Source: Escherichia coli
GTDB lineage: Bacteria > Pseudomonadota > Gammaproteobacteria > Enterobacterales > Enterobacteriaceae
Length of the DNA stretch: 64,000 nucleotides
Strand: one strand, 5' to 3'
Assembly: GCF_045037415.1 (NCBI RefSeq)
Contig: NZ_CP173438.1
The position numbers were made by a program. Below, piece after piece: positions 44,057-47,000 of this stretch (positions are counted from its first letter, which is position 1; the number at the start of each line of letters is the position of its first letter).

Positions 44057-47000
44057 TACAAATTGCGAAAATCCAATAGATTGCGACTCCCTTGTAGGCC
44101 TGATAAGCGTGGCGCATCAGGCACTTGCTCCCCGAACGTTGAATGAATTGTGGTTCTTATGTCCGAAACAAAAAACGAACTTGAAGACCTGCTGGAAAAA
44201 GCAGCAACCGAACCGGCGCACCGCCCGGCCTTTTTCCGTACTCTACTGGAATCCACCGTCTGGGTGCCTGGTACGGCGGCGCAGGGCGAGGCAGTAGTTG
44301 AAGATAGCGCGCTTGATTTACAGCACTGGGAAAAAGAAGACGGCACCAGCGTCATTCCTTTTTTTACCTCGTTAGAAGCACTTCAACAGGCGGTTGAAGA
44401 CGAACAGGCATTTGTCGTAATGCCCGTTCGCACATTGTTTGAGATGACCCTTGGCGAAACGCTCTTCCTTAATGCCAAACTGCCAACCGGTAAAGAGTTT
44501 ATGCCGCGTGAAATCAGTTTGTTGATTGGTGAAGAAGGGAATCCGCTGAGTAGCCAGGAAGTACTGGAAGGCGGTGAATCGCTGATATTATCGGAAGTCG
44601 CAGAGCCGCCAGCGCAAATGATTGATTCACTTACCACCTTATTTAAAACCATTAAGCCGGTGAAGCGTGCTTTTATTTGTTCAATTAAAGAGAACGAAGA
44701 GGCACAGCCTAATTTACTTATTGGCATTGAAGCCGATGGTGATATCGAAGAAATTATTCAGGTGGCGGGAAGTGTAGCGACCGATACATTACCTGGTGAT
44801 GAACCCATCGATATTTGTCAGGTGAAAAAAGGGGAAAAAGGAATTAGCCACTTTATTACCGAACATATTGCGCCATTCTATGAACGTCGCTGGGGTGGTT
44901 TTTTGCGTGACTTTAAACAGAACCGGATAATCTAAAATATGCCGCCCCAAAGGGCGGCATTCGGGCTTACTTGCTGCTCTGAAGGTTGTTAACCACCAGT
45001 AAATTGTCGCCGAAGAGACTTCGGTTATTATTTACCTCGGTTAACAGCGCACCAGAAACAATAAGTACGATACAAAAGCACCGTATCTTCATTGTGCGGT
45101 CCATGCGAAGACCGCATCACGACAGCACCACTGGCGATATTGCCGCGATAGCAAGCGCTGAGACGCGCTTGCCCTAACGGTCGCGGAACATCCTTTCCTT
45201 AAGCCAGCGCCCGCTTGCGAGACGGCGGAAAGGGCCGCAGTGGATAATACACTAACAGAACAATAATAACTCTCTTTTACTTGACAAAAAGAGAGTTACT
45301 GGCGAGTATTGTGTCCGCTGAGACGCGCTTGCATTACTACGGTAATACAACCTGCTGGAAAGGCCGCGAACCAGACCAGCAATAAAAAACCGCCAAATTC
45401 GGCGGTTTTTTATTGCCCGTAAAAAGCTTATTTTACGGGCTCAACCGGTAAATCTGCCCGTGCGCCCCATTCACTCCATGCGCCGTCGTACAGTTTCACG
45501 TTTGGCACATCCAACGTCGCAAGTGCCAACAAAACCACGGCTGCTGTTACACCAGAACCGCAGCTGACGATAATTGGTTTGTCATAGCTGACACCGCGAC
45601 CAAAAAATATCGCATCCAGTTCATCGGTCGTTTTTAGTTCGCCTTCACGTACCAGTTCCGTCCACGGAACGTTCAATGCACCGGGAATATGTCCGCGACG
45701 TAAACCTGGGCGAGGTTCATCAACTTCTGCGTTAAAACGTGTAGCCGGGCGGGCATCAATAATTTGCGCCGTATTTTCATGGCTTGCCAATAATACATCG
45801 GTTACTTTCACCACGGCTTCAGGATTAAACGCGGCGTTAAACTCTCCTTCCGGCAGCTCTACTGCGCCTTCTTCTAATAGCAGATCATCACGCAGCCAGC
45901 CTGCAAGTCCACCACCCAGAATCGACACTTTCTCTACACCAAAGGTGCGCAGCATCCACCATGCTCGTGGGGCTGAGAAAAGATTACCTTCGTCATAGAC
46001 AATCAGGTGCTTATCCTGGTTAACGCCTAATTCACGCATCGCCACGGCGAACGTTTCCGGGCGCGGCAGCATGTGCGGAAGCGGGGAAGTGTGATCAGAA
46101 AGCGCTTCGATATCAAAAAACACTGCGCCGGGAATATGTCCATTCAGATACTCCTGAGCAACGTTACGATCTTCCTGTCCAGGCGACGCCATGCGGGCAT
46201 CGATAATCTGAATTTCCGGGTCATCAATATGTTCGGCGAGCCAGTCGGCTCCTACAAACCATGTCGTGGACATAGGCATCTCCATTTTTGCCGGGGTTAG
46301 GCTAAATTGTCGGATGTTTAGTGAAAAGCGACAAGCAAAAGAGGCTGATTTGGCTGTCTGAGCCACAATTCTCACTAAAATTCGGATTGTATGGGCGTGA
46401 TACTGAATTACATAACGTAAATTCTCACGCATAATAATTATTCGACGTTGCTAACGGGCCATTGTGGCAGGGATGAAAAATGAAAAAGTTACGCGTAGCC
46501 GCCTGCATGCTAATGCTGGCGCTGGCAGGGTGCGACAACAACGATAACGCGCCAACAGCGGTGAAAAAAGATGCGCCTTCTGAAGTTACTAAAGCGGCCT
46601 CTTCAGAAAACGTGAGTTCAGCAAAACTTTCCGCGCCGGAGCGACAAAAACTGGCCCAACAGAGTGCCGGTAAGGCGCTGACATTGCTGGATCTCTCTGA
46701 AGTTCAACTCGATGGCGCAGCCACGCTGGTGCTGACGTTCTCCATCCCTCTCGACCCGGATCAGGATTTCTCACGCGTTATTCATGTCGTCGATAAAAAA
46801 AGCGGCAAAGTGGATGGTGCCTGGGAGCTGTCAGATAATCTTAAAGAGCTGCGTTTACGCCACCTCGAACCGAAACGTGATTTGATCGTCACTATTGGCA
46901 AGGAGGTCAAAGCGCTCAATAACGCAACCTTTAGTAAAGATGACGAAAAAACTATAACTACCCGCGATATCCAACCCAGCGTCGGTTTTGCCAGTCGTGG

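Follow-up and report, generated by a model that had tools for sequence, protein, structure and literature searches.

The sseB-sseA spacer of Escherichia coli: a compact, single-copy form, very probably, of the timP-timR (ryfA) type I toxin-antitoxin locus

What is encoded in the 492-bp spacer that separates sseB from sseA in Escherichia coli? We addressed this question on a 64,000-nucleotide stretch of contig NZ_CP173438.1 (assembly GCF_045037415.1), called here the window, in which the gene order is pepB, sseB (44159-44935, plus strand), the spacer, sseA (45428-46273, minus strand) and yfhM. The spacer is found in 5,425 of 5,426 complete E. coli genomes, in about 620 of them at 99% identity or more. 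It very probably represents, in a compact single-copy form, the timP-timR (ryfA) type I toxin-antitoxin locus of E. coli. A preliminary description of the sequence had proposed a type I arrangement here, had placed ryfA at this position and had evoked the small toxin TimP and its small RNA (sRNA) TimR. These proposals agree with our results: the arrangement matches the published timPR system (PMC7667032, PMC11228461), the minus-strand RNA is RyfA according to Rfam, and at the same locus the K-12 MG1655 annotation lists timR (b4811, 100 nt), ryfA (b4440) and timP (b4812, 41 amino acids). The locus, correctly recognised, is thus an already described one and no new discovery, since it is named and annotated in RefSeq and in K-12, possesses an NCBIfam model and has had its mechanism dissected in three papers. 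It serves as a positive control, a type I pair and its correct pairing site having been recovered from raw sequence without tools.

The reference system is that of Salmonella, where ryfA encodes the toxic inner-membrane protein TimP, whose toxicity is relieved by TimR through a block of translation, as supported by toxicity assays, compensatory M6 mutants and in vitro translation (Andresen et al. 2020, PMC7667032). In the same work, all enterobacterial timP genes examined were reported to have a TimR-type partner. Probing of a pseudoknot and of stem-loop (SL) 2 has located the TimR site in SL2 and the Shine-Dalgarno sequence in SL4; the 7-bp SL1-SL3 pseudoknot is required for translation and is disrupted by TimR (Eleftheraki & Holmqvist 2024, PMC11228461). 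A structural switch, with site 1-2 and site 2-4 interactions, has since been described (Eleftheraki et al. 2026, PMC13000454). At the sequence level, the window displays everything that defines timPR: a RyfA RNA, a TimP homologue, a divergent sRNA gene, pairing between the two RNAs and a structured leader. The features of the minus strand are as follows.

44934-45238, minus strand: timP mRNA, which is the RyfA RNA, about 305 nt, its 5' end taken as 45238 (Rfam RF00126)
44967-45092, minus strand: timP coding sequence, 41 amino acids and stop codon (open reading frame (ORF) listing, NCBIfam model, RefSeq, conservation)
45102-45104, minus strand: upstream in-frame ATG giving a 45-residue form, probably not the start codon
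44939-44960, minus strand: intrinsic terminator of timP/RyfA (terminator scan; 3' hairpin of the Rfam model)
45244-45249, minus strand: probable timP -10 box TATTAT, 5 nt upstream of 45238 (by reading of the sequence)
45192-45233, minus strand: leader SL1, mRNA nt 6-47
45151-45172, minus strand: leader SL2 (GCAAGCGC-GUCUCA-GCGCUUGC), of which nt 67-83 (45156-45172) are the TimR target
45116-45149, minus strand: leader SL3, of which nt 104-110 (45129-45135, GCCAGUG) are pseudoknot site 3
45096-45115, minus strand: leader SL4, enclosing the Shine-Dalgarno-like triplet GGA at 45100-45102 (sequence and Rfam structure; role from PMC11228461)

The identity of the RNA and that of the ORF are established here. 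The interval 44934-45238 matches Rfam ryfA (RF00126) with 317.3 bits against a gathering score of 80, over model positions 1-296 and untruncated, and ryfA occurs as a single copy within the window. The hydrophobic 41-codon ORF announced in the preliminary description at 44967-45092, with an alternative ATG at 45104, is present and translates to MKIRCFCIVLIVSGALLTEVNNNRSLFGDNLLVVNNLQSSK; it is TimP both by NCBIfam (NF040796 toxic_TimP, 82.3 bits, cut-off 45) and by RefSeq, which places the timP coding sequence on the exact equivalent of 44967-45092 in a 100%-identical E. coli genome. The GC hairpin noted behind this ORF at 44939-44960 is there as well and is the timP terminator, with nine pairs, seven of them G-C, followed by ATTTTAGATT. 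The protein begins with MKIR and then FCIVLIVSGALL, a conserved segment with a mean Kyte-Doolittle hydropathy of about 2.9 (own calculation); for the CFT073 homologue, a SignalP/Phobius prediction has been reported (PMC8205139).

The ATG at 45104 is the start used in the CFT073 paper, and a transcript starting at 45238 puts it at +135, in agreement with the ORF start given there (PMC8205139). We nevertheless judge the 45-residue form unlikely and the 41-residue start likelier, because the upstream ATG is not conserved, being AAG in Rahnella, Erwinia and one Yersinia copy in the leader alignment, because no purine-rich stretch or Shine-Dalgarno sequence is found upstream of it, and because the NF040796 profile opens at MKIRC, residues 5-44 of the 45-residue form aligning onto profile positions 1-40. 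The triplet GGA at 45100-45102 sits 7 nt ahead of the ATG at 45092.

The comparisons rest on a collection of species-representative genomes scanned once with a pattern comprising SL4 and the start codon, which yielded 22 loci; the genera compared are Yersinia, Rahnella, Citrobacter, Erwinia, Pantoea, Superficieibacter and Escherichia. The scan returned no Salmonella locus with the SL4 pattern, and comparison with Salmonella therefore rests on the papers and on Citrobacter. Two alignments were built, one joining the leader site to the TimR 5' end (A1, 23 loci) and one of the leader (A2, 23 sequences).

The leader fold is conserved. In A2, SL1, SL2 and SL3 are 90-100% paired (SL1 lower stem 97.5%, SL1 upper hairpin 100%, SL2 stem 96%), and every helix can form in the window sequence. 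The 7-bp pseudoknot between mRNA nt 30-36 (CGCUGGC, 45203-45209, pseudoknot site 1) and nt 104-110 is paired in all 23 sequences, with three pairs showing compensatory changes. The invariance of SL4 in this alignment is uninformative, since SL4 was the search pattern. The leader also contains a small upstream ORF (45174-45191, minus strand; AUG at nt 48-50, MFRDR, stop at nt 63-65) that ends just ahead of SL2; mutation of a comparable upstream ORF in Salmonella was without effect on translation (PMC11228461).

As for the timP promoter, a consensus scan proposed TTGTCA/TATTGT on the minus strand (45287-45260), whose start would lie about 12-15 nt upstream of the 5' end given by Rfam and in CFT073. 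We prefer the TATTAT at 45244-45249, because a -10-like box (TACAAT, TATGAT or TATTAT) is conserved at the equivalent position in other genera; no good -35 was found upstream of it.

The plus strand carries the other partner, TimR.

45281-45309, plus strand: TimR promoter, with -35 TTGACA (45281-45286), a 17-nt spacer and -10 GAGTAT (45304-45309) (by reading of the sequence)
45316-45411, plus strand: predicted TimR sRNA, about 96 nt, its ends deduced by alignment to K-12 timR b4811
45316-45332, plus strand: TimR pairing arm
45333-45346, plus strand: TimR hairpin 1
45354-45380, plus strand: TimR hairpin 2
45384-45411, plus strand: TimR terminator
45265-45300, no strand assigned: palindrome with 14-bp arms (AGTAACTCTCTTTT / AAAAGAGAGTTATT) around the TimR -35, between the divergent promoters

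The predicted start, near 45316, is the first base of the repeat discussed below. The preliminary description had rightly seen the TTGACA motif, one position off (45282-45287), as well as a divergent sRNA of roughly 100 nt, here predicted at about 96 nt and homologous to K-12 timR b4811. The plus-strand terminator that it placed at 45384-45411 is real: AAAAAACCGCC-AAATTC-GGCGGTTTTTT forms a strong hairpin with a U-tract, absent from the simple terminator-scan list, probably since extension of the stem absorbs the T run. It is bidirectional, as it lies 17 nt past the sseA stop on the opposite strand. The promoter is not listed by the consensus scan because its -10 matches the consensus at just three of six positions. 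Yet almost every intergenic region compared has kept CTTGAC, and most of them contain a NANTAT box.

The architecture of TimR is likewise conserved. In the consensus fold of 20 homologues, both hairpin 1 and the terminator show compensatory changes. The homologues have a common plan, in which a variable 5' arm is followed by hairpin 1, which covaries, by hairpin 2, whose loop is nearly invariant, and by the terminator. In an Rfam scan at permissive threshold, no family attains its gathering score on the plus-strand sRNA. The matches to AgrB, RNAI, rimP, psRNA14 and IS128 at 45303-45457 were rejected, all being below gathering and apparently driven by the terminator hairpin; that of AgrB covers the 3' part of TimR (45333-45414) with 29.8 bits against a gathering score of 40. 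Besides the window, the palindrome around the -35 occurs in E. whittamii and in the two K-12 copies, and it is absent in O145-type E. coli and in other genera; it may be bound by a regulator or be left over from a duplication.

What ties the two RNAs together is an exact 17-nt direct repeat, CGCTGAGACGCGCTTGC, at 45156-45172 and 45316-45332. Because both copies lie on the same DNA strand, the TimR 5' arm is perfectly complementary in trans to the timP leader. Both copies had been reported as a 16-mer (45157-45172 and 45317-45332) able to pair perfectly with the toxin mRNA leader; the copies and the perfect pairing hold, whereas the length has to be corrected to 17 nt. The 160-bp spacing was right, as was the distance of the leader copy from the ATG, put at about 65 nt (the copy ends 64 nt before it). 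These are the only two copies in the window, even when two mismatches are allowed, while shuffled sequences give 0.06 expected and two or more in 0 of 100 shuffles. On the leader side, the paired stretch comprises the 5' arm of SL2, its loop and the two bases that open its 3' arm; on the TimR side, it is formed by nt 1-17.

This complementarity is maintained while the sequence of the interaction site changes from lineage to lineage. In 19 of the 22 loci, the SL2 site has a copy 146-162 bp upstream that is complementary in trans, with runs of 10-24 pairs, G-U counted. Pairing extends over 92% of cells in A1, and 15 of the 21 pairs are altered on both sides, that is, compensatory, which establishes the co-evolution of the two sites. 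The observed covariation score was reached in 0 of 500 shuffles, and sliding the partner by 1-3 columns brought pairing down to 30-45%. The offset in A1 was picked in each locus for maximal pairing, a bias that is small because this offset is nearly constant. We used the exact-repeat count and the covariation test because RNAduplex on the full-length RNAs was uninformative, giving long gapped duplexes with a z-score of just -3.2.

Since the window has all the sequence-level traits of timPR, the published mechanism is the most likely one. The minus strand would give a leader-rich RyfA mRNA of about 305 nt, whose 41-codon ORF would be translated into TimP, a small protein with a hydrophobic, probably signal-sequence-like N-terminus; the plus strand would give the roughly 96-nt TimR from a promoter that lies 78 bp off and faces the other way. 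As in Salmonella, translation would need the active fold of the leader, with the 7-bp SL1-SL3 pseudoknot formed and the Shine-Dalgarno sequence released from SL4. TimR would dock on the loop and 5' arm of SL2 (45156-45172), destabilise this fold and stop ribosome loading at the site embedded in SL4. The leader was thus well designated as the pairing target in the preliminary description, and can now be narrowed to the loop and 5' arm of SL2; repression in Salmonella proceeds by disruption of a distant pseudoknot and not by occlusion of the ribosome binding site. For the window allele, TimP toxicity, membrane targeting and repression by TimR would follow from this literature, in which the mechanism was worked out in Salmonella.

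Several points weigh against a toxin-antitoxin locus in E. coli. TimP toxicity is stated to be undetermined in this species (PMC13188913). The distribution of variation over the codon positions (57/40/64 extra states) bears only a weak coding signature, and RNA structure confounds it. The transcription of both RNAs from the window allele is inferred from the literature, and CFT073, in which TimR was detected and whose locus we compared, carries an interaction-site allele unlike that of the window. Deletion of ryfA in CFT073 is fully complemented by ryfA alleles with a disrupted ORF (PMC8205139). In Shigella, RyfB1 reduces RyfA1 levels and no peptide was detected from ryfA1 (PMC5333039). The last two observations speak for an alternative that we find possible but rather improbable, namely that E. 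coli RyfA is mainly a trans-acting sRNA involved in stress resistance, fimbriae and virulence, that TimR is its antagonist, and that the ORF is dispensable or rarely translated. In avian pathogenic E. coli (APEC), similarly, deletion of ryfA attenuates, and both the timR deletion and the double deletion resemble the wild type (PMC13188913). However, the ORF is unbroken in every homologous locus that was readable throughout (26 loci, from seven genera), with a length of 38-42 residues and a hydrophobic N-terminus kept as MK(I)R(Y/C)xCIxLxVxG, and it passes a curated protein model; moreover, the conserved pseudoknot and the SL4 that sequesters the Shine-Dalgarno sequence are devices for translation control (PMC11228461). 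The regulatory role can also be reconciled with a toxin-antitoxin pair in a dual-function RNA, the two differing in physiological emphasis and not in the identity of the locus. It is, finally, hardly credible that the plus-strand features are the sseA terminator and a chance promoter-like site giving no sRNA, with the 17-nt repeat a neutral relic of duplication: the terminator at 45384-45411 is indeed common to sseA, the -10 has only three of six consensus positions and is omitted by the promoter scan, and the TimR gene resembles a partial antisense duplicate of the leader, but a neutral relic would not hold complementarity through sequence turnover with 15 of 21 pairs compensatory, the -35, both hairpins and the terminator are conserved across genera, and timR is annotated in K-12, while Northern blotting has revealed its RNA in two strains of E. 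coli, CFT073 and APEC CH138 (PMC13188913).

Taking the spacer as a timP-timR locus, its closest characterized relative is the Salmonella timP-timR pair (formerly ryfA / STnc2070), with which it shares the RNA family, the protein family and the sseA/sseB neighbourhood. In both, the 5' end of the divergent sRNA pairs with SL2 (18 nt in Salmonella, 17 nt in the window), the ORF starts at nearly the same distance (+145 and +147, respectively), and the leader comprises four stem-loops, a 7-bp SL1-SL3 pseudoknot and a Shine-Dalgarno sequence inside SL4. They differ in the length of TimP (38 residues in Salmonella, 41 in the window), in the additional gene STM2534 present between sseA and timP in Salmonella and not in the window, and in the sequence of the interaction site, the functional experiments having been made on the Salmonella allele.

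Homologous RNAs in the same divergent layout are found in Shigella dysenteriae (RyfA1/RyfB1 and RyfA2/RyfB2), E. coli K-12 and CFT073, in all of which specificity lies in a short variable region inside the complementary stretch. The window has one timP and one timR with the matched site GCAAGCGCGUCUCAGCG, whereas Shigella has two full pairs; CFT073 is single-copy like the window but with another matched site, GCAGGUG(U/C)UUCACAGC; and K-12 has the CFT073-type site in timP and in the distal annotated timR, and the window-type site in a proximal, unannotated TimR-like gene.

Other divergently encoded type I pairs of E. coli, tisB/istR-1, shoB/ohsC, zorO/orzO and dinQ/agrB, resemble timPR in possessing a small hydrophobic ORF behind a long structured leader and a trans-encoded sRNA. 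In these pairs, too, the sRNA comes from the divergent promoter next door, and its pairing site on the leader is far upstream of the start codon. They have no sequence relationship to it. The tisB, shoB, zorO and dinQ mRNAs are activated by nucleolytic processing, whereas timP is reportedly activated by refolding alone (PMC11228461); TimP reportedly has a signal-sequence-like N-terminus, while the toxins of those four pairs have a plain transmembrane helix (PMC7667032). The locus is not of the cis-antisense type (hok/sok, ldr/rdl, ibs/sib), in which the two RNAs overlap, because its complementarity comes from direct repeats 160 bp apart; predicted TimR (45316-45411) and the timP mRNA (44934-45238) are disjoint.

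Within E. coli, the comparison of the window sites with extracted loci from CFT073 (L029), O145 (L026) and two others (L027 and L006) showed that the interaction site exists in at least four types and that, within each, the leader copy agrees with that of TimR.

GCAAGCGCGTCTCAGCG: interaction-site type of the window and JNE12
GCAGGTG(T/C)TTCACAGC: interaction-site type of K-12 and CFT073
GCAGGCACCCCACAG: interaction-site type of O145 and SCPM
GCAAGTGTATCTCGTC: interaction-site type of UID2309220033

Between the window and CFT073, the otherwise nearly identical spacers show 51 differences over 497 aligned positions, concentrated in both sites, in TimR hairpin 1 and in the promoter spacer. Since their interaction-site alleles differ, TimR constructs are probably not interchangeable between strains. 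We do not present such allele-specific pairing classes as a novelty, because sibling copies (RyfA1/RyfA2 with RyfB1/RyfB2 in Shigella) and the specificity of RyfB1 through a variable region have already been described (Fris et al. 2017, PMC5333039).

The K-12 MG1655 locus shows a mixture of these types. Directly upstream of timP lies the second TimR-like gene mentioned above (2186-2290 of extract L024), with its own promoter and terminator. Its 5' arm is identical to GCAAGCGCGTCTCAGCG of the window and fits the K-12 leader weakly, with an 11-pair run; this leader fits the distal annotated timR (b4811), 481 bp off, with a 20-pair run. The two TimR genes are separated by a stretch that includes a truncated ryfA 5' end. 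In Yersinia similis (L013), Yersinia aleksiciae (L021) and Citrobacter amalonaticus (L023), the locus has collapsed: it has lost about 155 bp, with SL1 and both promoters, and the TimP ORF is intact. The TimR body is fused onto the 3' half of SL2, as would be expected from recombination between the direct repeats.

A further contact between the two RNAs can be imagined, but we consider it improbable. The loop of TimR hairpin 2, GGAAAGGCCGC (45357-45367, plus strand), is complementary, with a one-base bulge, to nt 1-12 of the timP mRNA (45238-45227), which include the 5' strand of the SL1 lower stem. This register is possible in 22 of 23 loci (Pantoea unscored). The duplex reaches -22 kcal/mol in the window, with p about 0.03 against shuffles, and p is 0.1-0.5 in most other loci; covariation offers no test, since both partners hardly vary. 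Alternatively, the similarity may be a leftover of the apparent origin of TimR as an antisense partial duplicate of the leader. If the contact is true, TimR, once docked on SL2, could invade the SL1 stem, and this could account for its destabilising effect on the SL1-SL3 pseudoknot, a point left open in the 2024 paper.

Other RNA features occur in the window. Rfam matches ohsC_RNA, the shoB-ohsC antitoxin sRNA, at 4044-4120 (minus strand) with 101 bits, so that the window contains two divergently encoded type I pairs. Between pepB and sseB, at 44012-44056, stands a hairpin resembling repetitive extragenic palindromic (REP) sequences, with a partial match to naRNA4 (RF02564) of 40 bits, below the gathering score of 59.5. 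The remaining Rfam matches, rncO (418-632), GlmY (13319-13466), iscRS (37569-37678) and sroE (58075-58166), are all expected.

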